Shown piece by piece: positions 3,979-64,000 of a stretch of DNA of 64,000 nt (positions are counted from its first letter, which is position 1; the number at the start of each line of letters is the position of its first letter). Both the position numbers and the translations under genes were made by a program. Below the pieces are notes generated by a model, which saw only the letters and a program-made list of their open reading frames with translations, had not been told where the DNA came from and searched no databases. The stretch comes from Eledone cirrhosa (lineage: Eukaryota): assembly GCA_964016885.1 (NCBI GenBank), contig OZ024745.1, positions 48,546,001 through 48,610,000 on the forward strand, read 5' to 3'.

Positions 3979-6557
3979 TCATCATCATCATCATCATCAT
4001 TTTACGTCCACTTTTCCCTGCTTGCAAGGGTGGGACGGGTCTTATTCAGCACAGCATCTCTCCACTCGTCACGGTCCCTCGTCATCTCCGCCGTGAGCTT
4101 CAATGATCTGAGGTCTGTTCTCACCACCTCCGGCCATGTTTTTCGTGGTCTACCTCTACCACGTCTTCCTTCAACTGGCATTTCCTGGCACTTCTTCACC
4201 CATCGGTCATCCTCCATGCGCATCACATGTCCATACCACCTCAGTCTCCTCTCCCGTACACTACATTCTATCCCTCTCAGACACAGTTTCTCTCTCAACA
4301 CATTTATGCTGGGTCGTTCACGCACATTTACACTGCACATCCAACGGAGCATGCTTGCCTCATTTCTCTCCAGCCGTCGCATATCCTCTGCGGTTGCTGC
4401 CCATGTCTCACTACCATGCAGCATCGCGCTCCTCACACAGGCATCATACAACCGGCCTTTCGTACGCAGGGAGAAACCCTTCTTCGTCAACAGAGGAAGC
4501 ACCTCCCTAAACTTCTTCCAACCCATCCTTATTCTAGATACTATGGCCTCGGAACACCCTCCTCCCATGCTAATCTGATCTCCTAGGTACCGGAAGCTAT
4601 CCACCACTTCTATAGCGCCCTCTCGCATTTGAAAAATGTGTCTATCAGTGCGACTTCTACTGTCTAATTTCCCTGTACATCTACTGCATACATATTTCTC
4701 CCTACCTGTTAGTTTGCCTGCTATCCCGCTACATCTCTTGTGTACCCAGGACCCGCATTGTGTGCATTTTATAGAATTTATGCCAGTTCCTTTTCTGCAT
4801 ATCGAACATGGCCATTTCCCTGACGGAATCAGGGTTTTGTCCTCTTTTCTACTCATCAACACTTTTGTCTTAGCTAGATTTACTCTCAGTCCTCTTGCTT
4901 CCAACTGCTGCTTCCATAGCCGGAATTTATTCTCTAGCTCCTCTACTGATTCTGCTATAAGAGCCAGATCGTCAGCATAGAGAAGTTCCCATGGACAGCC
5001 AGTCTTAAACTCCTCTGTTATGGCTTGGAGGACTATAATGAACAAGAGCGGGCTGAGGACCGAACCCTGATGTACTCCTACTTGTATCTGGAATTCCTCA
5101 CTAAACTCCATTCCTACCCTGACTTTACTGAGAGTACCTCTGTACAAAGTTTGCACTGTCCTCACAAGCCATTCCTCAACACCTAGCTTCCTTAGGGACC
5201 ACCAGATGACAGATCGGGGTACCCTATCAAAGGCCTTCTCTAGGTCAACAAAGGCTAAGTATAGTGGCTTATTCTTCTCTAAGAATCTCTCTTGCATTTG
5301 TCTCACCAAGAAGAGGGCATCTGTTGTACTCTTCCCAGGCACAAAACCAAACTGCATCTCATCTAGTTTGACCCTTTCTCTAATTAGTTGTGCTAAAATC
5401 CTTTCTGCCACTTTCATAACCTGATCTATCAGTTTTATACCCCTATAATTGCTCCTCTCCAAAGCATCCCCTTTACCTTTGTAGCAATTTATGAGAATAC
5501 TGCTGCACCAGTCTTTGGGTATGACACCACCATATATAGCCTGATTGATGATGCGTGCAACCAGTTTAGTGCCCACGTCCCCTGATGCCTTCAGCATCTC
5601 AGCAACTATTCCCGATGGTCAGGCCGCCTTACCATTTTTCATTTCCCTAATCGCCTCTTGGACCCTATATTCGTCAATCTCAATAGCTGGTCCCTCTGTC
5701 GGATCTACCAAGGGTAATTTCTCTCTCTCCCATTCATTCTCCACATTCATCAGTCTCTCATAATGACATTTCCAGGCCTCCTTTTTCTGGTCATTCGTGA
5801 CACTAAGTACACCGGCATCATCCCGGACACATTTATCTCCAACAACATCCTGATTTGCATTGACACACTGCCTTGCAATGTGGAACACCGCACGCCTCTG
5901 ATCTTCCCGTCGCAGAACATTGGCAAACCTCCTACTCTCTGCCCCCCTGCGTGCTAAGTACACCTGACGTCTAGCTTCTCTCTTAGTGGCTGTATATTCT
6001 TCCCTACTCCCACCCTTTTTCCAAGCCTTCCATGCTAGTCTTTTGTCTCTAATAGCCTTATCTACTGTGCTGTTCCACCACCAGGTCACTCTCTGTCTGG
6101 TTGGAGCTCTGCTCCAGCCACAGGTTTCATCAGTAACCTGCAGCAAGTTGTCACGTAAGAACTTCCAGTTATTATCTATGTCATACGTCTCTAAATCGTT
6201 TTCTTTTTCGTCATATACATCTTGAAGGGCTTTCCTAAATTTGTATTTTAGTGAAAGGTCTTTTAGCTTCCAGACCTTTCTTCTCCACACCTTCCTATAT
6301 GTCTCATTCCATCTCTTGCTTACTGAGATATCACTAACAACTAACCTATGCTGTGGGGTACATTCTTCCCCAGGGTATGCCTTGGTATTAGACACGATCT
6401 GCCTGTCCCGCTGCCTAACTAGCAGGAAGTCAATCTGGCTTATGTGCTCACCAGATTTGTAGGTTATTAGGTGATTGGCAGGTTTCTGGAAGTTTGTGTT
6501 GCAAATAGTCAATGTACTCGCATCACAAAATTCAAGAAGTCTCACTCCTTCTTCATT
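3979..6557 (-). mobile_element. Young 5'-truncated RTE-clade LINE (partial APE endonuclease + RT) with (GAT)n tail, inserted in (TA)n
   Basis: ORFs 5619..6545 and 4002..5597 are in one frame; APE motifs (NEEG.RLLEFC, SQIDFLL, QHRLVV); RT motifs (AFVDLEKAFDRV, GVHQGSVLSPLLF, YADD, FRYLG); (CAT)n on + at 3979-4000; (TA)n on both flanks. Confidence 0.95.
4002..6545 (-). pseudogene. RTE ORF broken by a single in-frame TGA at 5619-5621 (KAA*PSG, expected KAAGPSG)
   Basis: Codons 5618-5598 read PSGIVAE and join the two annotated ORFs in frame. Confidence 0.9.
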
Positions 6558-6580
6558 TATATATATATATATATATATAT

Positions 6581-7229
6581 TTGTATACCTATGGTAATTG
6601 TTTTGCGTATGCTTGTGTATGTACGTATTTGTTTGCGTGTATGTATTTATTTAATTTCTATTACTTCTGTATTGTATTTATTTACTTTGTTCTTAACTCT
6701 GTAGCGGAGATTCATTCGGCCTCCTAGTTAGAATTTTAGTCTACGACTTCAGCTATACCATTTACGTGGTTTTGTCTTTGCGTGCAATTGTTCTCCACGC
6801 TCCACATATGACGTATTATCTTCGTTTTTTTCGTTCATTGCCAGAGAACGTCTCTATGCACCACCTAAGAGAACATTAGTCTACAACCTCTTTTATACCA
6901 TAAACGTGGTTCTGTCTTTGCGCGTAATTGTTTTTCATGACGTATTATATTCGTTTTTTCCCGTTCTTTGCCAGCGAACGTTTCCACGAACCAAAGTATT
7001 GTCTTCCTGTCTTCCTCCGGTTGCAACGTTTTTTGAAATATCCAGTTCTGCGTTTACAGATTGACTTTGTTAGTTTCAGAAGATCTCGTTAAGGGTGAAA
7101 GCAGCGATTCTTTACTTAAATTTTAATCTGTTATTTTACTAAATATTTGCTCTACGGTTCTTATATATTTGATATATATTTATCCTTATCGAGCCCTCTT
7201 TGGATTTTAGTCTTCAAATTTATTATTAT

Positions 7230-17267: not shown

Positions 17268-19205
17268 AGGATACAGTTGAACATCAGTGTACCAGGGCTG
17301 GTGGGTTACAGTCAAACATCAGTGGTACCAGGGCTGGTGGGTTACAGTCAAACATCAGTGGTACCAGGGCTGGTAGGTTACAGTCAAACATCAGTGGTAC
17401 CAGAATACTGGGCTGGTAGGATACAGTCAATCATCAGTGGTACCAGGGCTGGTAGGATACAGTCAATCATCAGTGGTACCAGGGCTGGTAGGTTACAGTC
17501 AAACATCAGTGGTACCAGGGCTGGTAGGTTACAGTCAAACATCAGTGGTACCAGAATACTGGGCTGGTAGGATACAGTCAATCATCAGTGGTACCAGGGC
17601 TGGTAGGTTACAGTCAAACATCAGTGGTACCAGAATACTGGGCTGGTAGGATACAGTCAATCATCAGTGGTACCAGGGCTGGTAGGATACAGTCAATCAT
17701 CAGTGGTACCAGGGCTGGTAGGTTACAGTCAAACATCAGTGGTACCAGAATACTGGGCTGGTAGGATACAGTCAATCATCAGTGGTACCAGGGCTGGTAG
17801 GTTACAGTCAAACATCAGTGGTACCAGAATACTGGGCTGGTAGGATACAGTCAATCATCAGTGGTACCAGGGCTGGTAGGATACAGTCAATCATCAGTGG
17901 TACCAGAATACTGGGCTGGTAGGATACAGTCAATCATCAGTGGTACCAGGGCTGGTAGGTTACAGTCAAACATCAGTGGTACCAGAATACTGGGCTGGTA
18001 GGTTACAGTCAAACATCAGTGGTACCAGGGCTGGTAGGATACAGTCAAACACCAGTGGTACCAGGGCTGGTAGGATACAGTCAAACATCAGTGGTACCAG
18101 GGCTGGTAGGATACAGTCAAACATCAGTGGTACCAGGGCTGGTAGGATACAGTCAAACACCAGTGGTACCAGGGCTGGTAGGATACAGTCAAACACCAGT
18201 GGTACCAGGGCTGGTAGGATACAGTCAAACATCAGTGGTACCAGGGCTGGTAGGATACAGTCAAACATCAGTGGTACCAGGGCTGGTAGGATACAGTCAA
18301 ACATCAGTGGTACCAGGGCTGGTAGGTTACAGTCAATCATCAGTGGTACCAGGGCTGGTAGGTTACAGTCAATCATCAGTGGTACCAGGGCTGGTAGGAT
18401 ACAGTCAAACATCAGTGGTACCAGGGCTGGTAGGATACAGTCAAACACCAGTGGTACCAGGGCTGGTAGGATACAGTCAAACATCAGTGGTACCAGGGCT
18501 GGTAGGATACAGTCAAACACCAGTGGTACCAGGGCTGGTAGGATACAGTCAAACACCAGTGGTACCAGGGCTGGTAGGATACAGTCAAACATCAGTGGTA
18601 CCAGGGCTGGTAGGATACAGTCAAACATCAGTGGTACCAGGGCTGGTAGGATACAGTCAATCATCAGTGGTACCAGGGCTGGTAGGTTACAGTCAAACAT
18701 CAGTGGTACCAGAATACTGGGCTGGTAGGATACAGTCAATCATCAGTGGTACCAGGGCTGGTAGGATACAGTCAATCATCAGTGGTACCAGGGCTGGTAG
18801 GATACAGTCAAACATCAGTGGTACCAGAATACTGGGCTGGTAGGATACAGTCAAACATCAGTGGTACCAGGGCTGGTGGGTTACAGTCAAACATCAGTGG
18901 TACCAGAATACTGGGCTGGTAGGATACAGTCAATCATCAGTGGTACCAGGGCTGGTAGGATACAGTCAAACATCAGTGGTACCAGAATACTGGGCTGGTA
19001 GGATACAGTCAATCATCAGTGGTACCAGGGCTGGTAGGATACAGTCAAACATCAGTGGTACCAGAATACTGGGCTGGTAGGATACAGTCAAACATCAGTG
19101 GTACCAGGGCTGGTGGGTTATAGTGAAACATGACTCAGACCAGACACGGAGCTGATGGGATACAGTTAAACATGGCTCAGACCAGAATACTGGGCTGGTG
19201 GGTTC
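17268..19205. repeat. 36/43-bp minisatellite, about 50 units
   Basis: Unit GGTACCAGGGCTGGTAGGATACAGTCAAACATCAGT; 43-bp variant carries an extra AATACTG; degenerate units at both edges. Confidence 0.95.
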
Positions 19206-20808: not shown

Positions 20809-21328
20809 TGTTTCTATATTTGGCACAAGGCCAGCAATTTGAAGGAGAGGGGAAAGTCGATTAAATCAACACCACTGCTTACTGGTACTTTATTTTATTG
20901 GCCCTATAAGGATGAAAGGCAAAGCTAACCTCGGTGGGATTTCAACTCAGAACATAAAGGGCCATAATTCTATGCTGTGAAGCATTTGGTCTGACGCTCT
21001 ACCAATTCTGCCAATCTATATTGCATTAAATATAATTGCTTCTACTTTTGGCACAAGGCCAGCAATTATCCTGGTGCTTTATTTTATCGACCCCGTAACG
21101 ATGAAAGGCAAAGTTAACCTGGGCAGGATTTGAAATTAAATATAATTGTTTCTACTTTAGGCACAAGGCCAGCAATTACCCAGTGTATTACTGGTACTTT
21201 ATTTTATCGACCCCATAAGGATGAAAGGTAAAGTCAACCTCGGCGGTATTTGAACTCAGATTGTAAAGGGACGTAACTATGCTGGAAAGCATGGTGTCCG
21301 ACCCTCTACCGATACTGCCAATCCACCG
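20809..21328 (-). mobile_element. Three tandem copies of a tRNA-derived SINE with a Nin/Deu-like central domain
   Basis: Each copy has TTGTTTCTA..GGCACAAGGCCAGCAATT and GGATGAAAGGCAAAG or a close variant; each is preceded by an identical ATTAAATATAAT (20797, 21025, 21135). Confidence 0.88.
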
Positions 21329-23806: not shown

Positions 23807-23988
23807 GGGCGGTGAATTGGAAGTATCGGTAGAGGGTCGGACATGCTTTCCAGCATAGTTACGTCCCTTTACGATCTGAGTTCAAATCCTGCCGAGGTTA
23901 ACTTTGCCTTGCATCCTTACGGGGTCGATAAAACAAAGTACCAGTAATGTACTGAGTAATTGCTGGCCTTGTGCCTAAAATAGAAATA
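23807..23988 (+). mobile_element. Full-length young tRNA/Nin-like SINE with 13-bp TSD
   Basis: TSD ATTATGACTGTTA at 23794-23806 and 23989-24001; B box GAGTTCAAATCC. Confidence 0.92.
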
Positions 23989-25245
23989 ATTATGACTGTT
24001 ATTGGTGTTGTTGCAGTTGTTGTTCCTGTTATTATTTTTTCTATTCAAGCAACTTTTATTATTTAAAACCACATTGCTTGAAATAATGTTGATTCGTTGT
24101 TTTCATTTTTGCTACTTTATGTGATGGCTATCAGACACTGTCATCAATAAACATTTTTATCTTGATAGAGGAAACATTGTCCACCTATATATGTGAGGTA
24201 TATCACTCTCTTTTTCTGCTTATAGTATCCTTGCTAAAGTTTTGACTGAGATATAAATTAAATGTTTAAAATCTCGATGTCACAACACATCATAAGGGGT
24301 GTCATTCAAGATAAAACAATCCCACTTGCAAAGAGCTGGGTAGCCCTCCTACAACTTTGTCAAGTTTAAGGACTTCACCAAAAGATTAGGACTGATCAAA
24401 AACAAATAAAAAAATTCCTATAAATTTCAGTATGTTTTTGTTATAGCTCAGTCAAAGGAGAGACACAAACCATAACTTTTGTGTATAGACTCTAAGATTG
24501 ATGATGGAATAAGAGAAAGAAGCTATGACTTATGCAACAGTTAAAAAAGTGAGTTTTTCTAAAGCCTAATATGCTAATCAGGTTAGCTCTTGTCCTGGTG
24601 TTATGTGGTGTTAAGTGACTGAGAGTAAAAGACATCCTGCTGGACAGGTAGGAGGCCAGTCCCTTGCAAGATTAACTCACAACTGCTGCCAGTGCACATA
24701 TTCTTTTTCAGCTGGGTGGGCTGGAGTAATATGAAATGAGATCAACAGTGATATCTTTCATCAAAGAGTATTATTATTGAAGGAAAATGATATTATCTAT
24801 GCTATCTTTTATCAGAGGAAATACTTACAATAAAAGAAAGAATATGATAACCTGAATGAAATTGTTTATATTTTAATAACGTTTAGAGTAACAGATATTC
24901 CTATGAATTAGCTAAGATAGTGTTCATTTGAATGGTGTATAGAGAGAATGAACTCATCATTTGGATATAATTGAGGAAGTGGCTTTTCAAATCTCTTTTG
25001 TTCTTTGTACATATGTAAGCATAATCTAACAAGTATTATCTTTTAATTGCTTAAGACTTCGTCTTTTAAGATTCTTTGTATTAACTGAAATATTTAAGTT
25101 AGGAGTCAACGGAAGAAACAATATGTCACATACAGCATTTATTAACCACTAACTAAAGACATACGTACATACATAAATACATACATACACAAATACACAT
25201 GCATACATATGTATATATGTATATATAGATATGTGTATATATGCA

Positions 25246-25650: not shown

Positions 25651-28298
25651 CGTTATTCTGTGATAAAACAGACTGAGTCTTACTTTAGCAACAATAATAT
25701 GGGAAGTCAAGACATTGCTCTGTGATAAGACAGACTGAGTCTTGCTTTAGCAGTAACAATATGGGAAGTTAAGTCATTGTTCTGTGATAAGACAGACTGA
25801 GTCTTGCTTTAGCAGTAACAATATGGGAAGTTAAGTCATTGTTCTGTGATAAGACAGACTGAGTCTTGCTTTAGCAGTAACAATATGGGAAGTTAAGTCA
25901 TTGTTCTGTGATAAGACAGACTGAGTCTTACTTTAGCAGTAACAATATGGGAAGTTAAGTCATTGTTCTGTGATAAGACAGACTGAGTCTTGCTTTAGCA
26001 GTAACAATATGGGAAGTTAAGTCATTGTTCTGTGATAAGACAGACTGAGTCTTACTTTAGCAGTAACAATATGGGAAGTTAAGTCATTGTTCTGTGATAA
26101 GACAGACTGAGTCTTACTTTAGCAGTAACAATATGGGAAGTTAAGTCATTGTTCTGTGATAAGACAGACTGAGTCTTGCTTTAGCAGTAACAATATGAGA
26201 AGTTAAGTCATTGTTCTGTGATAAGACAGACTGAGTCTTACTTTAGCAGTAACAATATGGGAGGAGGGGTGGGTTAAGGTATTGTTCTGTGATAAGACAT
26301 ACTGAGTCTTACTTTAGCAGTAACAATATGAGAAGTTAAGTCATTGTTCTGTGATAAGACAGACTGAGTCTTACTTTAGCAGTAACAATATGGGAAGTTA
26401 AGTCATTGTTCTGTGATAAGACAGACTGAGTCTTACTTTAGCAGTAACAATATGGGAAGTTAAGTCATTGTTCTGTGATAAGACAGACTGAGTCTTGCTT
26501 TAGCAGTAACAATATGGGAAGTTAAGTCATTGTTCTGTGATAAGACAGACTGAGTCTTGCTTTAGCAGTAACAATATGAGAAGTTAAGTCATTGTTCTGT
26601 GATAAGACAGACTGAGTCTTACTTTAGCAGTAACAATATGGGAAGTTAAGTCATTGTTCTGTGATAAGACAGACTGAGTCTTGCTTTAGCAGTAACAATA
26701 TGGGAGGAGGGGGTGGGGGTGGGGGTTAAGGTATTGTTCTGTGATAAGACAGACTCAGTCTTACTTTAGCAGCAACAATATGGGAAGTTAAGTCATTGTT
26801 CTGTGATAAGACATACTGAGTCTTACTTTAGCAGTAACAATATGAGAAGTTAAGTCATTGTTCTGTGATAAAACAGACTGAGTCTTGCTTTAGCAGTAAA
26901 AATATGAGAAGTTAAGTCATTGTTCTGTGATAAGACAGACTGAGTCTTGCTTTAGCAGTAACAATATGGGAAGTTAAGTCATTGTTCTGTGATAAGACAG
27001 ACTGAGTCTTGCTTTAGCAGTAACAATATGAGAAGTTAAGTCATTGTTCTGTGATAAAACAGACTGAGTCTTGCTTTAGCAGTAACAATATGGGAAGTTA
27101 AGTCATTGTTCTGTGATAAGACATACTGAGTCTTACTTTAGCAGTAACAATATGAGAAGTTAAGTCATTGTTCTGTGATAAGACAGACTGAGTCTTACTT
27201 TAGCAGTAACAATATGGGAAGTTAAGTCATTGTTCTGTGATAAGACAGACTGAGTCTTGCTTTAGCAGTAACAATATGAGAAGTTAAGTCATTGTTCTGT
27301 GATAAAACAGACTGAGTCTTGCTTTAGCAGTAACAATATGGGAAGTTAAGTCATTGTTCTGTGATAAGACATACTGAGTCTTACTTTAGCAGTAACAATA
27401 TGAGAAGTTAAGTCATTGTTCTGTGATAAAACAGACTGAGTCTTGCTTTAGCAGTAACAATATGAGAAGTTAAGTCATTGTTCTGTGATAAGACAGACTG
27501 AGTCTTACTTTAGCAGTAACAATATGGGAAGTTAAGTCATTGTTCTGTGATAAGACATACTGAGTCTTACTTTAGCAGTAACAATATGAGAAGTTAAGTC
27601 ATTGTTCTGTGATAAAACAGACTGAGTCTTGCTTTAGCAGTAACAATATGAGAAGTTAAGTCATTGTTCTGTGATAAGACATACTGAGTCTTACTTTAGC
27701 AGTAACAATATGAGAAGTTAAGTCATTGTTCTGTGATAAGACAGACTGAGTCTTACTTTAGCAGTAACAATATGGGAAGTTAAGTCATTGTTCTGTGATA
27801 AGACAGACTGAGTCTTGCTTTAGCAGTAACAATATGAGAAGTTAAGTCATTGTTCTGTAATAAGACAGACTGAGTCTTGCTTTAGCAGTAAACAATATGA
27901 GAAGTTAAGTCATTGTTCTGTGATAAGACAGACTGAGTCTTGCTTTAGCAGTAACAATATGAGAAGTTAAGTCATTGTTCTGTGATAAGACAGACTGAGT
28001 CTTGCTTTAGCAGTAACAATATGAGAAGTTAAGTCATTGTTCTGTAATAAGACAGACTGAGTCTTGCTTTAGCAGTAAACAATATGAGAAGTTAAGTCAT
28101 TGTTCTGTGATAAGACAGACTGAGTCTTGCTTTAGCAGTAACAATATGGGAGGAGGGGGTGGGGGTGGGGGTTAAGGTATTGTTCTGTGATAAGACAGAC
28201 TCAGTCTTACTTTAGCAGCAACAATATGGGAAGTTAAGACATTGTTCTACAATACAACAGATTGAGTTTTGCTTTAGCAACAACAATATGGGAAGTTA
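25651..28298. repeat. 62-bp satellite, about 42 units
   Basis: Unit GTTCTGTGATAAGACAGACTGAGTCTT(G/A)CTTTAGCAGTAACAATATG(G/A)GAAGTTAAGTCATT; period checked 25779 to 25841. Confidence 0.96.
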
Positions 28299-28909
28299 AA
28301 AAAGAAACAAGGATCCTCTTGGTTTTTTATTTCCTTCTTTTGTTTTTTCTTCTCATCTTTTTCTTTTTATATTTGTAGATTTTATTTTAGTGTAGTCTCA
28401 TTAGATTATTCAGTGAGTGGTAAAAAATATATTTACCCTGCTAACAACTATAAAGCATGGAAAACAGATGTTATTGAAAAGAATAGTTTCAATATGTTTT
28501 CAACAAAAGAACAAGAAAATAAAATGTATTATATTGTTTCCAAAAGTAAAATTGTTACTATTTTTAGTAACCTTTTTCTCACAATGCTACAAGTGGACAC
28601 ATATGTATACATTTCTATATTTTCTATGTTTTTATTCTGATATTTTTTATTTTAAATTAAGGAACTTTAGTTACTTGAGTAATTATTACAGTTTTATTAT
28701 TCCACTATGTCTTGTCATATTATGAGAAACGGTCTTGTTGCTTACTTTACAAGTTTGTTGAGAGGATGTGTCATATATCAATCATTAAACATGATTTAAT
28801 TGTGAGATGTTTGCAGTAAGTAGTACTAGCAGCATAACGCAAGAATCTCTACAGGTTCATTCAACCTGCTAGAAACAACTGCTAAATCAACCTTAAATCA
28901 TATCCTACA

Positions 28910-42379: not shown

Positions 42380-42436
<57 letters not shown>

Positions 42437-42535
42437 TATTGAAGTTTCCGTTGAAAATTGAAAAAGTCATAGGAGTGAAGAGTGCTCTATGTAAGTACCA
42501 GAGCTAAATTTAATGTATAATAAACAATACAATAT

Positions 42536-42613
42536 AATTACCTCATTACCAGAGGTTTCCCAAATAAGACGAATACAAGAAACGTCCTTATTCGTTCGTC
42601 AGACAAGGCAATT
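42536..42613 (-). ncRNA. Type I hammerhead ribozyme motif in the inverted pLTR
   Basis: Minus strand AATTGCCTTGT-CTGACGA-stem II-GAAA-CC TCT GG-TA-ATGAGGTAATT (11-bp stem I, GUA triplet); first stem II pair is A.G. Confidence 0.75.
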
Positions 42614-42967
42614 TAAAACAGTGAAATATTTGAAAAATCTCCTCAAGAAAGGCAAAAGTTTGACGGGCAAAAAAATATATAAATAAATATATAAATAAAA
42701 GTATTGCAAGAGATATATAAAAATATATAAATAAATATATAAATAAATATATAAATAAATATATAAATATATAAATAAAAGTAATGCAAGAAATATATAA
42801 AAATAAAATAAGGAAATATCGTTAGGGTATGTGTATAAATGTGTGTATATTCACTCACAAATGTACATATGTGTGTACAAATGTACAAATGCATGTGTAT
42901 AGTGGAAACATGTGTGCGTAAGTACATATATGAGGGCAAGCATATCAGTGTATGTGTGACCACAAAT

Positions 42968-44894
42968 ATGACCGCTTTTGAACTAGACTTAGTTAATTTC
43001 ATCAACCAAATCAAATTCCGTAAGTATTCTAACCCTTTTCAATCTAAACTATCTAACGATATTTCAATATTCAAATCTTCTAAAAATAAGTTCATTTTCT
43101 CTGACAAAACTAAAAACTTATACGAAGTTAATAATAACTTACATGACCAACTCTTAACAGATAACATCACCTCTAAATACCAAATAGCTAATATAAACAC
43201 CTATAATACTATAAATAAGGAAGCTAAAGAATTAGCTAGTTTTTTTTAAAATAGACAATAGAACAGAAAAACTTGCTAAACGTATCACCCTCAAAGATCA
43301 CAAACCTGATTTTATTAATCGTCCTAGTTGTAGATTAATCATTCCAGCTAAAACTGAAATTGGGCTTGCTAGCAAAAAAATATTAAATAATATAAACAAA
43401 CATGTTAGAAGTAAGTCTGAATTACTCCAATGGATAAATAGCTCTTCCGTAGTACATTGGTTTAATAATATTAAAGATAAAAATAGTTCTAGATTCACCC
43501 AATTTGACATTGTAGACTTCTACCCGTCTATTACTCACCCTCTTTTAACGAAAGCCTTAAATTTCGCTAGAAAGTTTATCAATATTTCTGATATTGAAGA
43601 GAATGTCATTTTGCATGCTAGAAACACTTTACTATTTACTAATAATGACACTTGGGTAAAAATATCTAACCCAGAGAACCCATTCGATGTCTCAATGGGT
43701 TCTTTTGACAGTGCTGACGTGTGTGATTTAGTCGGCATATTCCTCCTACACACACTTAAAGAGAAATTCCCTAACCATACCTTTGGGCTTTATCGCGACG
43801 ATGGTCTAATACTTTCCCATACCACTATAGGCCATAACTTAGATAGATTAAGGAAAGACTTAATAAAAACCTTCGCTAATTTTAATCTTAAAATTACCAT
43901 TGACACTAACCTTTCCAATGTTAATTTTCTAGATATAAACCTAGATCTGCCTACTGCTTCTTATAAACCGTACTATAACCCTAATGAAAATTTAAAATAT
44001 ATAAATAAAGGCTCTTGCCATCCTCCTATAGTTTTTAAAAATCTTATCCCTGATATTAGCCGTAGGATCTCCACCCTCTCTTCCTCAGAAGCTATTTTCA
44101 ATAAGGCATCCCCCTACTATAATAAAGCCCCTCAAAATAGCGGATTTAGCGAACTGATTACGTACATACCCAACAATACTAACTCCTTTAAACATAATAA
44201 TAGGAAAAGAAAAATAATCTGGTTCACATACCCCTACTCTTTAGCAGTTAAAACTAATGTAGGCAAAAAATTCCTAGAGCTCTTAGATAAACATTTCCCT
44301 AGAACACATAGATACTATAAGATCTTCAATAGAAACTGTGTCAAAATCAGCTACTCCTGCGGTCCCCCTATTAAATCTTATATCCTCAATAAGAAAATAC
44401 CCAGAGAACATCAAAATTGCTCCCGTAGAGTCAAAAGTGAATGCCCATTACAAGGTAAATGCAATACCAAAGTCATTGTATATGCGGCTAAAGTGACAAC
44501 CACCAGCAACAACCTACCAACCACCAGCGAATGATATGTGGGTATGACACAAGACAAATTCAAAACGCGTTATTACTCACATGTCGCATCTTTCCGACAT
44601 CCTGAAAAAAGATTTACAACAGCTCTGGTTAGCAGAATATGGGATTTGAAAGATCAAGGTATCCAATATAAATTAGATTGGTCAATTTTGAACCAATCTA
44701 AAGAATATGCAAGAGGAACAAGAAGATGCACACTCTGCATAAATGAAAAATATTGGATTTTACAGAACCTTAAATCACCAAAAACCTGCCTAAATGCAAA
44801 AACAGAAATTTTCACTAGTTGCCCACACATGAAATCACACTTGTTTTCCACCTCATATAAACTTAACTCACTTTCAGATAATTATCCTCCATAA
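42968..44894 (+). pseudogene. PLE RT-GIY-YIG ORF with one frameshift (T8 run 43240-43247) and one in-frame TGA (44532-44534)
   Basis: SDKTKNLY, ITLKDHK, CRLIIPAKTEIG, FDIVDFYPSI, FDVSMGSFDSADVCDLVG, LYRDDGL, FLDI, CPLQGKC, IVY...YVGMT...FKTRYYSH, CTLCINEK, LNAKTE. Confidence 0.88.
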
Positions 44895-45340
44895 ACTCTT
44901 GTTCTTCACTTTCCTTAAATTACCCTCTTTACAGACTTCTCTTTCTGATTTACTTTTATTTTTATTTTTAACTTTATTTTTACTTCACATCCACCAGTGA
45001 CCCCCCCCCCCCCCTTGCTTTTTGATTCACTTATTTTATATCTTCACAATTTTACATATTTTACTTCCCCATTCTCTTTCACTACCTGATACCGCATGTC
45101 ACTTGCGTTTTCAAATCCAGATATATTCTGTTGTCTCTCAGCCGCTTTTATGTATGTTTACTTGCGTATAATTTGTACTCATTTATTCATACGTCTGGTT
45201 TTTATATTGTATCTATGCGTGTGAGCATATGTATACGATTGCATTCGTATGTGTGCGTGTGTGTGTATATGCGTGTGTGTATGTGTGTTCTTATATCTAT
45301 GTTTTTTACATACTTATATATATGTGTGTGTGTGTGTATG

Positions 45341-45383
<43 letters not shown>

Positions 45384-46143
45384 ATGTATGTGTGTATATA
45401 TATAGTCGCGTGCGTGCGTGTGATTAGATGTACATGTACGTAGATATATATGTGCTTCGTCTGTATGTATGCGCGCCTTTGTATTTGTGTACGCATGTAT
45501 GTGCTTTTGTCTGTACGTATTTATATATATATTTATATATATATATATATGTGTACGTGCGAACCTATGTATGTTTTCTATTTTTTCTAGTGTTACTTTA
45601 TAATTGATGACCCCTCCCTCTTTGATTTAATTTTTTTATTCTCATATATTTTTTCATTCTTTCATTTTTATATATGTATCGACCTTCAGCCTGACACTGT
45701 TTTGACTTATACACTCCCTTCCCTGTATATATCACTCGTATGTATGTGGTTGCGCATGTGTGTGTGTTTATACGCGTGCTTTCATAGTTGTATGTGTATA
45801 TATTTCAATCCTTAGTACCTGAGTCTCGATGTACGTTAACTTTATTATCTTACAATTTCTTTTTCAACATATATTATATACGTATTTGTGGTCACACATA
45901 CACTGATATGCTTGCCCTCATATATGTACTTACGCACACATTTTTTTACTATACACATGCATTTGTACATACACACATATGTACATTTGTGAGTGAATAT
46001 ATACACATTTATACACATACCCTAACTATATTTCCTTATTTTATTTTTATATATCTCTTGCATTACTTTTATTTATATATTTTTTTGCCCGTTAAACTTT
46101 TGCCTTTCTTGAGGAGATTTTTCAAATATTTCACTATGTTTTA

Positions 46144-46212
46144 AATTGCCTTGTCCGACGAACGAATGAGGACGTTTCTAGTATTCGTCTTATTCGGGAA
46201 ACCTCGGTAATT
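46144..46212 (+). ncRNA. Decayed hammerhead copy in the 3' pLTR
   Basis: Core reads CCGACGA (U4 to C) and the 3' strand of stem I is partly deleted relative to 42536-42613. Confidence 0.55.
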
Positions 46213-46351
46213 ATATTGTATTGATTATTATACATTAAATTATATATATATATATATATATGTGTAAATGAAGTCGGAAAAGTCCAGGAAAAAAGAGTGC
46301 TCTATGTAGGTAACAGAGCTTAATAGTTATGTAATAAACAACCAGGATTTT

Positions 46352-52805: not shown

Positions 52806-55651
52806 TTAGTACATTCCATCAAATCTGAAATCCATCTTTATCTGTTACTCATTAATCTTATACACTCCTGTGCAGATAATGCAACAATACATTTTCCCCT
52901 ATCCTTTAAATCAATGAGAGGAACCTCTACAAGGTTGCTCAACATACTTAAAATAACAGCTAAATCTCCCTTAAATCACACCCTATCATCTTAAAAAAAG
53001 GTCACATTGGATAATATAGTTCTAGGCACACTGTATCTAGATAAATGATAAAGTGGTAATAGCTGAAATGTTTTTGACTCTGGGTCTGTTCTATCAGAGC
53101 TGATATGGGTTTAAAAACAACCACAACATCCCACAGTTAGTCCATTGCTAATATGAACAGATCCCACTAGATATCCATTTCATCTTCCATGAGAACCTCT
53201 TTATACTCTCCAACGAGAGTCTGACAATTTGGTGACATTTGAAACCAAAGTACAAATGCTGTTTATTTCAAGGAAGTTTCCATTTCTCACTAATAAGTAC
53301 CAAAGAATTTCAACACATTTCCCTTAAACTTCCAAAGTACAAATTTATCTACACCTCTCACTAGTAATGACTTCAAATTTCAATATTAGAATAACATATA
53401 TTTTTACTCTACTCTATAGGTTCTTTGTAGGAGTTGGGTGGGGGAATTAACAGATATTTTGACTGTAGTGTTGCACAAACAACTCCAAACGCCAGTCATT
53501 AAAGATGCACCTCTATTGATGATATTATATTCAGAGGGGTCAATCTCTCATAGAAGATTCTGATTCAGAACTCTTTTAAAACTTTAACAATGAAATCTTA
53601 AGGAATATTTCCTTCTTGTTTAGCTATCGCTTCATAAAAGTCCAAGAAATTGTCAACTCTAGATTAATAATGTTCCCATATCAAACATTGTAACAAATTT
53701 TATTTTATTAGTAATATTCTAAACTGTATCCAGGAGAAAGCTACCTTTCTAATTGATAATCCTCTTACCAATAGCCTAGGAAAAATCCTTAAGAATTGTG
53801 ATCTATCTATACTGAAACAGGCTAAAGAGCATGCTAGATAAGACATGTCAAGATTATAACATTGAATCACACAGAATCAAACACTGCATTATGAAATACT
53901 TTCTTAAAAATAATAAATATACTTTTAAATGGTTTAGTCAGAGCTTCTGTGACTGGTGGGAGAGGAAATTATTCTCAGACTAATGATCTTGCCCAAATAC
54001 TTGCAATATAGTGAACTCTACTAAAGGAACTCATGGGTCAAGTAATGGTATTAAATCAGGTAAAAGGATTAACTTTACCAGCCAAATCTGTGTAACATTC
54101 AACTGACTATTTCTGGTTCTAGGTTTGTTCAAGGAGAACTAACTGGAGCTTCCCAAAAGTAACAGCTGATCACTGCTAAAAATTGTTATTGCTTGCTATT
54201 GCGATCTTGTGCATTGCTGTGTTTCTTCCGCAGTCTCCCCCCCCCCCTCTCACCCATTTGCACACAGAATCTACATCTACTGTCAGAATCTTACTATCCA
54301 TACTGCTTGTCTTCATAAAACCTACACCAGACATTACAAATAATTCTTCATCTTGGAAACAGCTGCCCTATTTAGTTCCCTTCCCCACCCTATATTCCTG
54401 CAATACACTAACTGTCAATTCTTCAAACTCATTAATTGTGTATATGAAAACATATCTAGTTTTGCTGTAAAGTAATTTTTAAGATAAAAACCCCAACTTA
54501 ACGAAAATGCACATGTTAAGTTGAGAATTGACCTTAAAAGTTATTTATAATAAGATGGAATATGTTTTTATATACAGAATTAATTAATTCATATGCTGTA
54601 TGCTATCTCAAATAACTTTTGTCTTTAAGTTCGATATAATCTATATCAATTACACTTACCTCTTTCTATTTCCCTAGTTTTCAGCAATTATTTCTTTCAT
54701 CAAAAGGGCGATATATAAAAAAAGCAAACTTTCCAGTTACTTGAAATAATTTAGCTTGTTTTAAATTGTTTACTATTAAAATATGCTTTGTCTTTGTATA
54801 AGACTGAATTTTTCAGGTACTTCTTTCAGTAATCATACTTTTCTGATAGTTATAGCCATTTCATATTTTTTTTAACAATCACTAACTAACATTATACAAT
54901 ATATAGCTATCTGATACTGAGTGGTATATTCATACTGTGTTATTTCATAATATACTATATATACTTGTAGATAAATAAGTTGCATATATTTTTACAAAAA
55001 AAAAAAAAAAAAAAAACCCAAGAAAATCAACTGCAAAAAGTCATATGTAACTTATCTATTAAACTTTTTCTTGAGCCTCAAATATTAAATAATGAAGCCA
55101 AAATATATTATAAACACAAAAAGGGTGTGACTTATATCCTAGAAAACATGGTATTTAGTGCTGAAATGCACTTAGTAGAAGCAAATATAATCCAAGAACA
55201 AATACAAACATCTGAACAGATGCAAATGTATAAACTGATGGTGGTATCTGAAATTGTTATCTAGTCAACACTTATTTTTGTTATCTAGTCAACGAGTATT
55301 TTTGTATATTTTCCAATCTTGCCATACACTGTCTTCACAACATGGAACAATGAAAATATATTAACCCTTTCATAACTATATTTCTAATGAAATACGCTAC
55401 CTATATGTTTCCATTAGTTTTGAAAATAATCAAGAATTTGGATGGATTAAGAAATTAGCTATATATATATATATATATTCATTTAGGTTTGTTGGTTCAC
55501 CACTGGATAGAACTGGTCATTCTGTATAGTCAACCTTGATGTAATATTAGGGACAGCACTCAACATAATGCAACTCACCCGTCTTCGTTTGTGTTGTTGG
55601 TCTCTCTGCTTTTTCAGCCCCATGGATTGTGTCTATTATATTCCTTTGTTA

Positions 55652-55836
55652 GGGCGGTGGATTGGCAGTATTGGTAGAGGGTAGGACGCCATGCTTTCTA
55701 GCATAGTTATGTCCCTTTACAGTCTGAGTTCAAATCCCGCCGAAGTTAACTTTGCATTTCATCCTTACGGGGTCGATAAAATAAAGTACCAGTAATGTAC
55801 TGAGTAATTGCTGGCCTTGTGCCTAAAGTAGAAACA
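55652..55836 (+). mobile_element. Full-length tRNA/Nin-like SINE with 17-bp TSD
   Basis: TSD ATTATATTCCTTTGTTA at 55635-55651 and 55837-55853. Confidence 0.92.
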
Positions 55837-55963
55837 ATTATATTCCTTTGTTAAATTTCGAATACCTAATGATGTCACTGGATTCATACTGAACCCAGTC
55901 ATTGAAATGTTCATAGTATAATAAACCTTTAAGGAATTACACCAGTCCAGCCTCCTGTTATTT

Positions 55964-56007
<44 letters not shown>

Positions 56008-56205
56008 GTGAGGTTTCTTTACAAAATGAAAAATAACCGAGGTGTCCTACACAAGTGAAAGTATAAAGAAAAAAAGATGAAATCGAAAATGCAACTGGAG
56101 TCTTATTTTAAAAAAAATATATATATTTATTTGGTTCCTTTACTGGTTTCGCAGTTCTTCTGTTTTTCAAAAGTAGAGTTGAGATGGAGGGTCTGTGGTT
56201 TTTCT

Positions 56206-56249
<44 letters not shown>

Positions 56250-56980
56250 CACAAACAGCATATCAAAAGACTGGAACGATTTCATCAGCAGTGTCTCAGA
56301 AAGATGCTTGGTGTCAAGTGGCAGATGCATGTGAGTGATGTTGAGAGAAGTGAGTGTCGGAGCATTGAAAGTATCATCCACCATTTGCGATGGACTGGAC
56401 ACCTCTGCAGAATGGAGGATGATCGACTATTGAAACAACTTTTGTATGGCAAGCTTACCTTTACAAAGCTTACCATACAAAAGTTGTTTCCAGAGTCGAT
56501 CATCCTCCATTCTGCAGAGGTGTCCAGTCCACTCTGATTAAGTATGTGTCCAGTCACAAACCAAAGCTCTGATTCAAAGATTGTGTAAAGGACTCATTGA
56601 AAAAAAGAGAAACTTGGCGCGGAATGGTGAATGATGGGGTCCATAATTTTGAGGACAGACACATAGAGCATGAGAGGATCAAATGGAATGTGTGTAAGCA
56701 ATGCACTGGTGTCTCTCCCGAAACGATCGGTGTCTGCATTGAATTGGTGTGCCCTGAGTGTGGAAAGATTTACTTGAGTAAATCTGGTCTCAGGAGCCAC
56801 AGTCACAGCCATGTTCAAAGAGAAACAGTGAATTATGATCTCCACGGTATTGTGAAGGTTCACAGGGAACCTGATGCAAGACCTAAGGCCAGGAAGATCC
56901 ATAGTTGTTGTCAATGTGCGAAGGAGTGCAAGTCTCTGGCTGGCTTGAAAAGCCATATCCGAGCGTTACACATATGAATC
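56250..56980 (+). mobile_element. RTE/BovB-like LINE 3' fragment with two C-terminal C2H2 zinc fingers
   Basis: LERFHQQCLRKML, LRWTGHLCRMEDDRLLKQLLYG, FKDCVKDSLK, CPECGK...GLRSHSHSH, CCQCAK...GLKSHIRALH. Confidence 0.82.
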
Positions 56981-57056: not shown

Positions 57057-57569
57057 ACATTTTGTAGAGATTACACATTGTCTGTAAGTTTGTAACAATG
57101 TCAAAAATGTAGTTTTCTTGTTTTATACATTTATATACATTGATGGATACTTACATTTGCAGAAAACCGCCCAGGGAGCAGTATTTCTGCTAGTATATAA
57201 ATAAATATGACACCAATTGTTATCTTGGCATATCCACCACTATCAGGACTGATACCTTCGTAGCAAATGACAACCGCATTGTTGACTGTGGATATGCACT
57301 GTTTTCATATGTGTATGTGTACTTGTGAGAGTGTATTTAACTTGGTTTTTGTGTCTATGTATGTACATATGTATATATATATATATATATATGATGTGTG
57401 TATATATATGTATACATATATGTGTGTATACATGTATGTATATATATATATATATATGTATGTATATATGTGAGTGTATATATATGTATATATATGTATG
57501 TATATATGTGAGTGTATATATGTATATATATGTATGTATATACATATATAAAATATATATATGTGTATG

Positions 57570-57645
<76 letters not shown>

Positions 57646-57775
57646 AGTATGCTTTGAATCAGTGAGCAGGTTTGAAATTAGAAAATAGAATAGCTTTCAC
57701 CTTATTTTTGACTAAAGATATTTTAGTCTGATAATGGGGTTTAGAACCCTCAGATAGATGGAAAAAGATGAGTAT

Positions 57776-57846
57776 TGACGTACATGGGAGTCGAACCCAC
57801 ATCTTTGGTTATCCAGACCACTGTGCTACCATTACACCAACACATC
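57776..57846 (-). tRNA. tRNA-like unit (pseudo-tRNA/SINE head), anticodon position GGA
   Basis: GATGTGT-TG-GTGTAATGGTAGCAC-A-GTGGT-CTGGATA-ACCAA-AGAT-GTGGG-TTCGACT-CCCAT-GTACGTC-A; A and B boxes; T5 nine nt downstream. Confidence 0.6.
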
Positions 57847-57850
57847 ACAT

Positions 57851-57921
57851 GAGGTATTGGTGTAATGGTAGCACAGTGGTCTGGATAACCAAAGATGTGG
57901 GTTCGACTCCCATGTACGTCA
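57851..57921 (+). tRNA. tRNA-like unit (pseudo-tRNA/SINE head), anticodon position GGA
   Basis: Same body with acceptor 5' strand GAGGTAT; A box TGGTGTAATGG, B box GGTTCGACTCC; TTTTT at 57931-57935. Confidence 0.6.
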
Positions 57922-58021
57922 ATACTCATCTTTTTCCATCTATCTGAGGGTTCTAAACCCCATTATCAGACTAAAATATCTTTAGTCAAAAATACGGTGA
58001 AAGCTATTATATATATATATA

Positions 58022-58063
<42 letters not shown>

Positions 58064-60586: not shown

Positions 60587-61131
60587 CTAATATACAAGGG
60601 CTCCCAACTAGATTTAAATACTTATGATGAAAAATAATTCCATGAATTAATAATAGACAGACTCTGTTTCACACTGGTTGCAGTTGAAACTTCCACAATG
60701 CATCTTTCTTCTGCCAAATTGAGATAAGGGCATCACAACTAAGGATTATTCCCTGTGAGGTTGAATGGCTGATGTAGCAAATATTACTGGCTGTTTTTTG
60801 TGGCAACATTTTTTGCTATCTTGTCCTCAGGGTGGCTGAAGCTGCATCTCATAGGAGATTTGTTAGAAGGTTTAATGACAGAAGCTCCAGTCCTAAAATA
60901 TTATCATTTCTTCTGGTGACAGGGTGCAAGATTTTAAATCAGAATTCCTATAACCAGAACAGTTAGTGCAAGACATTCTATCTATTGGTTTGATGATTCC
61001 AGCAATCCATTGCTTTGGACTCATATTATATTTATTGATCAAGAAAGGATGAAATGCCAAGTTGACCTCAGTGGAGTTCAAACTCAGAGCTAAGAGAGCC
61101 AGAACAAATATTGCAAAGTAATTAATTTAAT

Positions 61132-61316
61132 TGTTTCTACTTTAGGTACAAGGCCTGCAATTGCCCAGTGCAGTACTGGTACTTTATTTTATCGACCCCG
61201 TAAGGATGAAAGGCAAAGTCAACCTCAGCAGGATTTGAACTCAGATCGTAAAGGGACGTAACTATGCTGGAAAGCATGGCGTCCGACCCTCTACCGATAC
61301 TGCCAATCCACCGCCC
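61132..61316 (-). mobile_element. Full-length young tRNA/Nin-like SINE with 20-bp TSD, nested in an older related SINE
   Basis: TSD TGCAAAGTAATTAATTTAAT at 61112-61131 and 61317-61336; older copy at about 61030-61110 and 61337-61360. Confidence 0.92.
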
Positions 61317-64000
61317 TGCAAAGTAATTAATTTAATGCTCTAATATCTCTACCAATCCACCACCTTGGGCTGGTACTTAATTTTATCATCCTCGCAAACA
61401 TGACCATGAAATGTTTTGAACTTGGAATGCAAAGAACTGGAACAATTACATTCTCTAAGTGTAGGAATCTTTCCAACTGTCTCAGGTTAATTTTTCTCTT
61501 GATGATGAACACCTTTAATGCTAAAACACCTGAAACCACTCTTGGTTCTACACGACAAAACTTATATTTTTACAGTATTTATTTCTATATAAAAACTTAT
61601 TAATGTAATTTTAAGTTATGCTCCAAACCCTTCCAAATTCTTTATTCATTCAAAATGATTTGAAAATCACAAACAGTGTCTTTCATTAGAAATATGGTAA
61701 CAATTTTTTTTTTTTTTTGTAATATATATATATATATTTTTTTCCCCGTTTTTTAGGTTTTTTTCTATCTACATATATTAATTTAATTTTGGCAGGATAT
61801 ATTTCTGCTGCAATACTAGCAAAATAAATACAGTAAGAATGTTTGGAAAGCTGAACAAATTAAAAATAAACAATCTATCTTCTTATATTTTCATTAGATT
61901 TCTATATTATTCCTTTTCATCATCCATCTAACACTATGATTTCATATCAGCCATGTTGATTATCTAAGTCTAATAGTTTATTTAAACCTGACAGAAAATA
62001 TAATTTCTCTTCTCTGACAATGTCAAACTCCATTAAACAATGAATGGAAACTGATACTCTGGTAGAATTGACTAGAGACAGTTTTTTTGCAGTTGTTTTT
62101 AGCATTCCACTAACTTAACTTCTGCTTTGTTTCACATACGTATCTACATACACATAAGCTTTATTCACGTTTCTTAATTTTCACACTACACTGAAGAAAG
62201 TGTATCATCTGATATTGTAGAAAGAACTTCAGTTTCATATACCTATAGAAGGATGGATCGAGCATTTAAGAGAAAAGGGGAGAAAAAGAGAAAATGAGTT
62301 AGAGCCATCATTTTTATGTCCGACCTCCCATACTTGCTTGCACAGACTGGACAAAGGCCAGAGCTTATACCAGCATTGTGATGTGATGTTAAGTGATATT
62401 AAGAGACTTCTGGTCCATTGCAAGGCTATTTCCCAACTGTTGCTGATACTCCTTTTCAGCTCACTAAACTGGAGCATCGTGAAATAAAAGGCCTTGCTCA
62501 AGGAAACAATTCCTCACCCAGTCTGAGAATCAAACATGATTTTATTATCAAAAGCCTAACCACAACAAGACATAACGATATCAACAATAAAGTATTTGAG
62601 AAAATATTTTAAATAAAAAGATGAACAGGTGAAAGATCTTTTAGGTAAAAGGTAAATGCTGTTATTTATTAAAAGATGAACAGATAGATGGGTGATTCAG
62701 TATAATTCATTAAAGGTTGAAAGATGATATAAATATTATTCATTTTAAACATGCTATAATATATGTTGATAAATATTTCAGTCTCACAAGTAAAGAATAA
62801 TTCAGTCAAAAGAATAAGCAAAAAGTGTTTTCTCAACTCCACTATACGTTATAACAAAATTAATCCTTTTATGATCATATTTCTCATGGAAACTATGAGT
62901 TCCAAATAATTTTGAATACAATCAAGAATTTGAAGGAATTTAATACAGAGTCTGATGATTTCTTTATCAATTTCCATGCATTCTTTTGGCTATCAGTGGA
63001 CTTGGAATTGTCAAAGGAATTGAGGACAATATTGATTCTTTTGTCTTCTTCCTCTCAATACACTTTTTGTAGACATTGTTGATTTGTTTCTATTTCTGTA
63101 ACCTTAGAGTGTAAGACATTGGAGTGAGCTGCAGTTACAGAGTGCAGTTCTGAAGACAAGATTTTTTTTTTTTTTTGTGTGGGAGGTGGGGTTATATCTC
63201 AGTGCTGATTTATTGGATCATGTGAGATGGAAAGGTTTTATCATGTCACCACAAAGAAGTAGATTGAATGTAGTAGTATTCAGTAGTAATACAGAGCTGT
63301 AATATTTATAAGGATGAATAAGCTGAAGCCTAGGGTCGCTGCTGCAGGAACTAGGTACCCCACAGGAATTAAAGGCTTTACAGAAACTAGGGGTCTATCA
63401 ATTTTCTTTTATTGAAGCACTATACCTGAAAGCCCAAATAATGTAACTAATTTTCTGATAATTAGGCTGGTGCTTGGAATATAACTTAATAAAGATTCCT
63501 ACATAAAATTATGATGGAAGTAGTTTCTGATAAATAAAAACACTTTAAAACTTTATCTTATATTCTAGAACTAGAGGGTGCTTTGGGACGATTTGGTATC
63601 AAATGAGTTAATATAAAAAGAAAATAAATAAATCTAAAAACAAAATTTCCAAATTTAGAAACATTTAACTGAATAAATATAAATAGTGTTCGAAAATTCT
63701 AGATTTAATCTGTTAAGTTAATTATACGCCAGTCTTAAACAGAATAATGTTTTTAATTAGATATAGGAGTTGTAATTAGGCATGTAATTTCGACAGTCAT
63801 GACTTTCTTAAAGACATTTGCCAAGATAAAGATAAATGCTTCAAATGGGAAAATAAAATTTGGGTTACAGACTGAGTTTGTCTAGTAGTTACTACTTACT
63901 CCATGGTTCTTGCTACAACAACAACAATATCAACAATATTATTATTATAATCATTATTATTATTTATTTATATATTTATTTACTTTTTGGCATATAGATA

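Follow-up and report, generated by a model that had tools for sequence, protein, structure and literature searches.

The window analysed here, a stretch of 64,000 nucleotides of Eledone cirrhosa DNA, carries at 57643–58008 an inverted structure bounded by (TA)n-rich microsatellite, at 57356–57642 on the left and 58008–58063 on the right. An earlier note had described it as a 320 bp palindrome with a tRNA-like unit in each arm, and this description holds. The arms, 57689–57840 and 57857–58008, are 152 nt long with a sole mismatch (57702/57995), and the left arm exceeds the right by 46 nt, reaching 57643. ARAGORN calls a pair of cloverleafs whose anticodon triplet is GGA, and the Rfam tRNA model RF00005 places them at 57776–57846 (minus strand, 49.7 bits) and 57851–57921 (plus strand, 49.5 bits; gathering score 29). 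A T5 run lies 9 nt downstream of each. The palindrome is predicted to fold as a long hairpin of −287 kcal/mol; Rfam miRNA matches within it were rejected, being under the gathering scores and reflecting the palindrome itself.

Neighbouring copies reveal that the arm is a piece of a 260 bp unit repeated head to tail. The left arm (57643–57848, minus strand) is a 5′-truncated copy of the subfamily A unit, comprising unit positions 259–260 and then 1–204, and it ends at the second of two preferred sites described below. It contains an intact tRNA-like domain (57776–57846, minus strand; A box 57829–57839, B box 57787–57797, GGA loop), followed by a trailer (57689–57775, minus strand) with T5 at 57762–57766, the 3′ strand of a closing stem (unit 74–92) and two short hairpins. 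The 46 nt 'tail' (57643–57688, minus strand; unit 159–204) occurs on this arm only. The right arm (57857–58008, plus strand) comprises unit positions 7–158, with T5 at 57931–57935, and ends at the first preferred site. The left arm differs from the subfamily A consensus at five positions, two of which are changed on the right arm also.

The tRNA-like domain called by Rfam on the plus strand is family sequence only from 57857, unit position 7. The 5′ acceptor strand of the right unit is replaced by strand-switch junction filler (57849–57856, plus strand), so that the acceptor stem which the earlier note ascribed to the right 'gene' has one strand foreign to the family. The segment 57849–57859 is the reverse complement of unit 70–79 plus one inserted base, and a 12-mer holding it is unique to this place among 149 loci compared. 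The 8 nt between the arms are likely to be filler templated from unit 70–79 in reverse complement, judging from this match. The ACAT previously taken as a spacer is composite: AC belongs to the left arm, where its two bases close the preceding unit, and AT opens the filler.

No host exon was found in the 14 scanned of 44 ORFs (≥70 aa, 46.3–64 kb), which gave only a zf-RVT retrotransposon zinc domain and sub-threshold zinc-finger matches. A decayed LINE-like 3′ part with C2H2 fingers lies at 56112–56977 (plus strand), ~380 bp left of the (TA)n tract; read by eye, this zinc-finger frame near the palindrome appears to be a LINE remnant. Elsewhere in the window are a LINE-type reverse transcriptase frame with a PHD-like finger (4002–6650, minus strand), minisatellite arrays at 17268–19173 and 25656–28299 (36/79 bp and 62 bp periods) and four copies, 91–92% alike, of an unrelated ~190 bp repeat (21139–21328, 23842–23992, 55651–55844 and 61124–61317). 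The last has a B-box-like motif and is likely to be another SINE. At 42435–46250 there is a Penelope-like element (PLE) of an abundant family with inverted ends in (TA)n. Its reverse transcriptase frame (43236–44534) is followed by a stop and then an endonuclease-like part, and a hammerhead-like core is present in the terminal repeat. The protein was not recognised by Pfam or PDB searches; it is assigned from motifs identified by eye and from BLASTP, which matches it to an ORF bearing GIY-YIG (E = 2e-9).

Exact matches to family motifs number 1,073 (23-mer) and 1,973 (22-mer) in this genome of ~3.0 Gb, with none for the reversed controls. These counts are lower bounds because diverged units escape exact matching, and the strand imbalance of the 23-mer (397 versus 676) also suggests missed matches. 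A search with the right arm returned 1,054 candidates, 40 of which were scored and include full-length matches at 94–100% identity. The unit consists of the tRNA-like domain and a structured part of 189 nt. Six subfamilies with units of 260–295 bp were distinguished. In the younger ones (A, 260; B, 290; C, 272; D, 269 bp) the median identity of copy to consensus is 94–97%, and in the older ones (E, 295; F, 286 bp) the identity is 90–92%. The tRNA domain is the most conserved part, with 85–100% identity between subfamily consensuses against 50–76% for the remainder (94% in the sister pair C/D).

We sampled the family by position: from the 1,073 matches the initial 100 were taken, every one of them on contig C1, and with eight duplicate loci removed these gave 83 insertions. 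Diverging outer arms are present in 60 (55 simple, five complex) and a single arm in 23; 62 of the 83 cross a unit junction head to tail, and in 48 an arm is longer than one unit. The arm is thus not an ordinary monomeric SINE elsewhere in the genome, nor is the palindrome unique to its locus, two possibilities that the earlier note had raised against itself. The outer 3′ ends are concentrated: 121 of 142 fall in two windows that make up 38 of the 260 unit positions, 56 at 155–175 (site 1) and 65 at 200–216 (site 2), ~45 nt apart, although the positions are blurred where alignments run into the TA tract and B ends inside the insert of that subfamily map to 215. (TA)n adjoins 110 of the 142 outer ends, compared with 491 of 5,731 background windows (8.6%).

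The two arms of an insertion rarely share a site. Among the 60 two-armed insertions, 38 pair site 1 with site 2, in six both arms end at one and the same site, and the other 16 have at least one end outside both sites; the mixed pairing of 38 out of 44 has P = 4.7e-7. A larger, score-selected set (n = 86) divides similarly into 60 mixed-site, six same-site and 20 with an end elsewhere. The 5′ ends are scattered, and this combination with fixed 3′ ends indicates the polarity of reverse transcription. The centres are scattered as well. Both starts lie within −12 to +15 of the tRNA start in nine of the 55 two-arm insertions, against 4.1 expected if independent, and every one of these nine has a different junction. 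Across the 55 junctions we find an overlap of 1–10 nt in 24, a flush joint in four and extra bases, often copied from the unit, in 27. Fold-back synthesis was discarded as the sole source of the second arm since the arms are often not nested (e.g. L072, L077 and L099). One locus, L004, has a 79 nt GC-rich central filler (1653–1731) that is not from the unit and is possibly a captured foreign template.

The palindrome is therefore one insertion of a dispersed family and a by-product of insertion. The earlier note was right to see a tRNA-derived, non-translational mobile family, here with more than 1,000 copies, that targets (TA)n and is laid out, as PLEs are, in asymmetric inverted form. The head-to-head tRNA pair is not the design of the element, whose unit is 260 bp and whose centres fall anywhere along it. 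That each tRNA-like domain occupies the TFIIIB region of the other is likewise incidental, as so few two-arm insertions have both starts near the tRNA.

The D-arm does resemble tRNA-Gln, with 17 of 18 nt matching the genome's own tRNA-Gln genes. Over the whole domain these genes match at 46–49 of 71 positions and three other tRNA-like sequences at 42–44, so descent from tRNA-Gln rests mainly on the D-arm; two further comparison rows were out of register. A translational role can be set aside, as had been supposed, given that the anticodon loop varies (GGA, TGA and GGC types), position 37 is T and a short variable loop accompanies a Ser-type anticodon. Within the domain most changes affect the loops of the anticodon and T arms and stem wobble positions, a distribution in which shape appears to matter and decoding does not. 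In practice, the family produces many false tRNA-Ser calls. We also noted another multicopy tRNA-like family (L242, L244–L252; Rfam 53–72 bits) with varied anticodons and common flanks, and a cluster of tRNA-Gln genes in both orientations (L319–L348, mostly G000:C1:168.21-168.28 Mb), among which are two distinct sequences with a CTA (amber) anticodon.

The tRNA domain is likely to act as an internal Pol III promoter, as judged from its sequence. The B box is canonical in subfamilies A–D and has two changes in E and F. A T5–T6 run directly after the tRNA is kept in all six subfamilies; such a run would terminate Pol III short of the remaining unit sequence. The retention of this run and the altered B box of E and F fit poorly with a role as promoter only.

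A 19 bp stem is predicted between the 19 nt that follow the tRNA and the 19 nt that precede it, and it forms only across the unit junction. This leader/trailer duplex is predicted in all six consensuses, at −19 to −25 kcal/mol in A–D, −16.6 in E and −24.5 in F. In one E lineage it has one compensatory pair (96 A:T, 5 T:A and two mismatched), scored in 103 of 141 junction-spanning copies. Of five 'compensatory' pairs in a fold of the consensus alignment, three were discarded as a register shift in a T run and a fourth is ambiguous. In 49 aligned copies the cloverleaf and inner stem are 89.7% paired, and ≤56% when slid. Covariation was not above that of shuffles, 493 of 500 scoring as high, in these 49 of the 141 copies with the outer stem half unalignable. 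The non-tRNA part folds at z −3.5 to −5.3; for the whole unit folded as a circle z is only −1.0 to −2.3, and for a 291 nt linear fold −1.37.

No hammerhead core was found on the sense strand of consensuses A–D with one mismatch allowed, and the antisense strand gave four weak matches; a strict hammerhead pattern finds 35 cores in 80 PLE loci. Rfam ribozymes were absent from locus L013 (E up to 5) and from five B–F loci (E up to 0.01). A GAAA-AGCT near site 1 was considered as half a hammerhead and rejected, since it is not kept in C–F. With neither a hammerhead nor an Rfam ribozyme found, and with a promoter-only role fitting poorly, release by tRNA-processing enzymes may be what yields RNA of unit length, with the stem as a splint for ligation, a reading to which we give rather less than an even chance; the unit may instead hold a ribozyme of an unrecognised type. 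The roles of RNase P, RNase Z and RtcB are described in the available part of PMC10275265.

PLEs occur as partial tandems with an inverted 5′-truncated copy and a tail of 30–40 bp at one end, and the available text of that account treats the origin of the tandem and inverted structures as an open question (Craig et al., 2021, PMC8557442). On AT-rich DNA, one PLE protein in purified form both cleaves and extends the two strands, starting at two internal RNA positions that define the tail (Frangieh et al., 2024, PMC11167929). In the portion of that report available, the start site is alike on both strands in vitro, whereas the genomic copies of the present family pair unlike sites. Three control PLE insertions, chosen since both ends are visible, share the pattern of a short and a long end in (TA)n: one end of the ORF-bearing PLE in the window (42435–46250) is 77 nt longer than the other, and the ends of the Neptune-type loci L189 and L191 differ by ~65 nt.

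The genome is rich in PLEs, with 10,595 and 64,781 first-look candidates. The earlier note had proposed a comparison of the arm with PLE terminal repeats (pLTRs), and this gave no homology to 80 PLE loci or to the PLE in the window. Neither blastn nor an nhmmer profile found a significant match between the unit and these elements, which represent few families out of the candidates, except for a copy inserted in L207; in local alignment 93–241 of 500 shuffles scored as high. Assignment to PLEs is consequently by layout. We mention as a hint that 11 of 12 nt agree between site 1 of subfamily E and the end of a Neptune-type PLE, a post hoc comparison involving the distal site of that PLE. The family has the tandem and inverted 5′-truncated layout, the two end sites with a one-sided tail and the AT-rich target of a non-autonomous PLE, and we consider a two-ended insertion of PLE type very probable.

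Our model, to which we incline slightly on the sequences at hand, is that of a non-autonomous passenger of PLEs probably copied from a unit-length circular RNA. A PLE protein would cut both strands of a (TA)n tract, and the two broken ends would each prime reverse transcription of a single RNA, from site 1 (~155–175) in one case and from site 2 (~200–216) in the other. Both cDNAs would stop at variable points, often past the unit junction, and their ends would be joined via short homologies or short templated fillers to give diverging arms and a one-sided tail. In this window both cDNAs would have stopped near the tRNA 5′ end, leaving two tRNA heads face to face. The tRNA domain would supply the internal Pol III promoter and possibly a processing signal that releases unit-length RNA, and the 19 bp leader–trailer stem would keep the RNA ends together for ligation. 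A fuller version, in which the family is a ribozyme-free retrozyme whose 260 nt circle mimics a pre-tRNA, is cut by the host, splinted by the stem and copied by a dimer of the PLE protein from two sites, is speculative and we think it rather doubtful.

That both arms derive from one template is suggested by shared non-consensus bases, which per 100 sites amount to 0.86 between opposite arms, 1.06 between tandem passes and 0.23 between different insertions; the total differences are alike (5.7, 7.0 and 6.2, respectively). Three insertions first typed as mixed-subfamily proved to be intermediate types, and private variants on both arms are plain in L088 and L125. Continuation upstream of the tRNA is seen in 84 of 117 first passes and in 8 of 11 second passes, so the template RNA was continuous across the junction, either a circle or a long multimer. 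Given insertion of PLE type, we lean towards a unit-length circle as the probable template. The other choice keeps the same two-ended insertion and supposes a linear multimer, made by read-through of tandem copies (Pol III past T5, or Pol II), with tandems arising through template jumps and later DNA duplication and the tRNA domain as promoter only. This we regard as possible at less than an even chance.

Several observations bear on the choice. Arm stops show about a twofold excess at −10 to +18 of the tRNA 5′ end (35 in 3,299 nt versus 81 in 12,999, P = 0.007, in a window chosen post hoc), which suggests some linear 5′ ends and suits the multimer. So do variants common to only some passes and the occurrence of mosaic arrays: in 45 insertions with at least three passes, 36 variant sites are shared by some passes, 34 by all and seven show two hits that differ in base. 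It is adjacent passes that share variants in L013 and L035, and part of the tandem structure is not the product of a single-template rolling circle. Multicopy head-to-tail non-autonomous PLEs of Chlamydomonas are described without a circle in the available text of PMC8557442. Against the multimer, arms copied from a linear dimer that renews itself would reach no further than the upstream tRNA, whereas most second passes go through it, the subfamily type is the same across the arms of an insertion, and the leader–trailer stem and full cloverleaf are conserved beyond the needs of a promoter. Nor did the L316 array give rise to the other loci. At 412–7330 of L316 (G000:C1:131458500-131466000) one insertion has grown to ~25 tandem units (6.5 kb), a satellite born of a retro-insertion; the mosaic of shared variants points to likely expansion at the DNA level, and the other 148 loci all lack its private mark. 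There are signs of another long array at G000:C3:271499072-271503969.

In L1 twin priming the arms do not overlap and the true 3′ end is on only one of them. If a LINE (RTE, L1-Tx1 or R4/Dong type) had mobilised an ordinary tRNA SINE and twin priming had made the inversions, the tRNA head with its A and B boxes would be accounted for, and LINE remnants are present in the window. We nevertheless judge this very unlikely, since in this family the arms share overlapping sequence and each stops at its own one of two fixed internal sites, there is no poly(A) or repeat tail and the unit junction is crossed in most insertions. DNA-level elements, whether MITEs with long inverted repeats or rolling-circle units of the Helitron/Replitron type, are also known to have inverted arms, TA targets and tandem arrays. 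Such an origin is highly improbable here, where neither arm length nor centre is constant, the termini are two different sites of one unit and fixed 3′ ends oppose scattered 5′ ends.

It is just as improbable that selection maintains, at this locus or across the family, a divergent pair of Pol III genes or a source of hairpin RNA (an ADAR or Dicer substrate). The long predicted hairpin and the excess of starts paired near the tRNA speak for it, but of the 55 two-arm insertions 46 have their centre elsewhere, the listed junctions all differ, the acceptor strand of the right 'gene' is filler and the 14 ORFs scanned gave no host exon. Double-stranded RNA on which ADAR or Dicer could act would be expected from the palindrome solely if this locus is transcribed. 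A chimeric read or assembly artefact has a negligible chance of being the explanation. The palindrome's own centre is spanned by no short-read contig among those listed, but its arms differ at one site and end at two family-wide sites, and the sampled insertions are mostly inverted with different junctions. Contigs of three public runs (X1–X3), which cover the family deeply, show many arm-to-arm joints at varied positions, in one sample that is possibly the assembly's own.

The family offers many short, fully readable insertions that bear on how PLE tandem and inverted structures form, and they yield a numerical regularity, namely that the two arms of an insertion nearly always begin at different sites of what is apparently one template. 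Should the circle be real, circular RNAs could arise from the genome by a path that needs no ribozyme.

Both LINEs and, through Helenus, LTR elements are known to have SINE-like tRNA passengers. SINE2 families have in common with the present one a tRNA-derived region with A and B boxes, short length, lack of coding capacity and high copy number. They differ in that the unit here is circularly continuous, starts at any phase and has internal 3′ ends, with T5–T6 right after the tRNA, no A-rich or LINE tail and usually two inverted arms. Helenus/TRIMp3 is also a LINE-independent non-autonomous element with a captured tRNA-derived Pol III promoter, and tandem arrays occur; the available account gives it LTRs, PBS, PPT, 4–5 bp TSDs and dependence on an LTR element (Kojima, 2024, PMC10886601), whereas our family has the PLE insertion layout. 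It has no internal region between repeats, its arms are inverted and its ends internal; TSDs are unreadable in (TA)n.

A tRNA passenger of PLEs is not described in the full-text literature searched, a scope outside which lie Repbase, Dfam and subscription journals, and a catalogue entry for the family may exist already, labelled as SINE or as unknown. A recent octopus repeat annotation reports 893 recently active unclassified SINE families, without such detail in the part available (PMC13282606). PLEs and their non-autonomous derivatives share with our family the partial tandems, inverted 5′-truncated arm, tail at one end, two start sites and (TA)n targets, and Naiads also lack hammerheads in the descriptions available. 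PLEs carry an ORF, which this family does not. Non-autonomous Chlamys elements are generally described as sharing 3′ sequence with an autonomous family, and none such was found here among the 80 loci. The tRNA-derived domain of our family is undescribed for non-autonomous PLEs in the available text of PMC8557442 and PMC11167929.

The closest likeness in other respects is to metazoan non-LTR retrozymes (Cervera & de la Pena, 2020, PMC7229834; PMC7761336), which the available accounts describe as non-coding units of 150–400 bp with low GC content, present as dispersed monomers to long tandem arrays, with structured RNA and proposed mobilisation by PLEs. In these the hammerhead cuts and RtcB ligates in vitro (PMC7229834; PMC7761336), and the link with PLEs is argued in bioRxiv 10.64898/2026.07.22.740005, the available part of which makes no mention of tRNA. 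The present family similarly consists of a short non-coding unit in dispersed tandem copies, including one array of 25 units. Retrozymes of this kind have a type I hammerhead and pLTR homology, and their circles have been demonstrated; our family, known from genomic DNA alone, has a full tRNA-like domain, with no hammerhead and no pLTR homology found. It works like a retrozyme or a non-autonomous PLE, and is neither a retrozyme by definition, a canonical SINE nor a Helenus TRIM.
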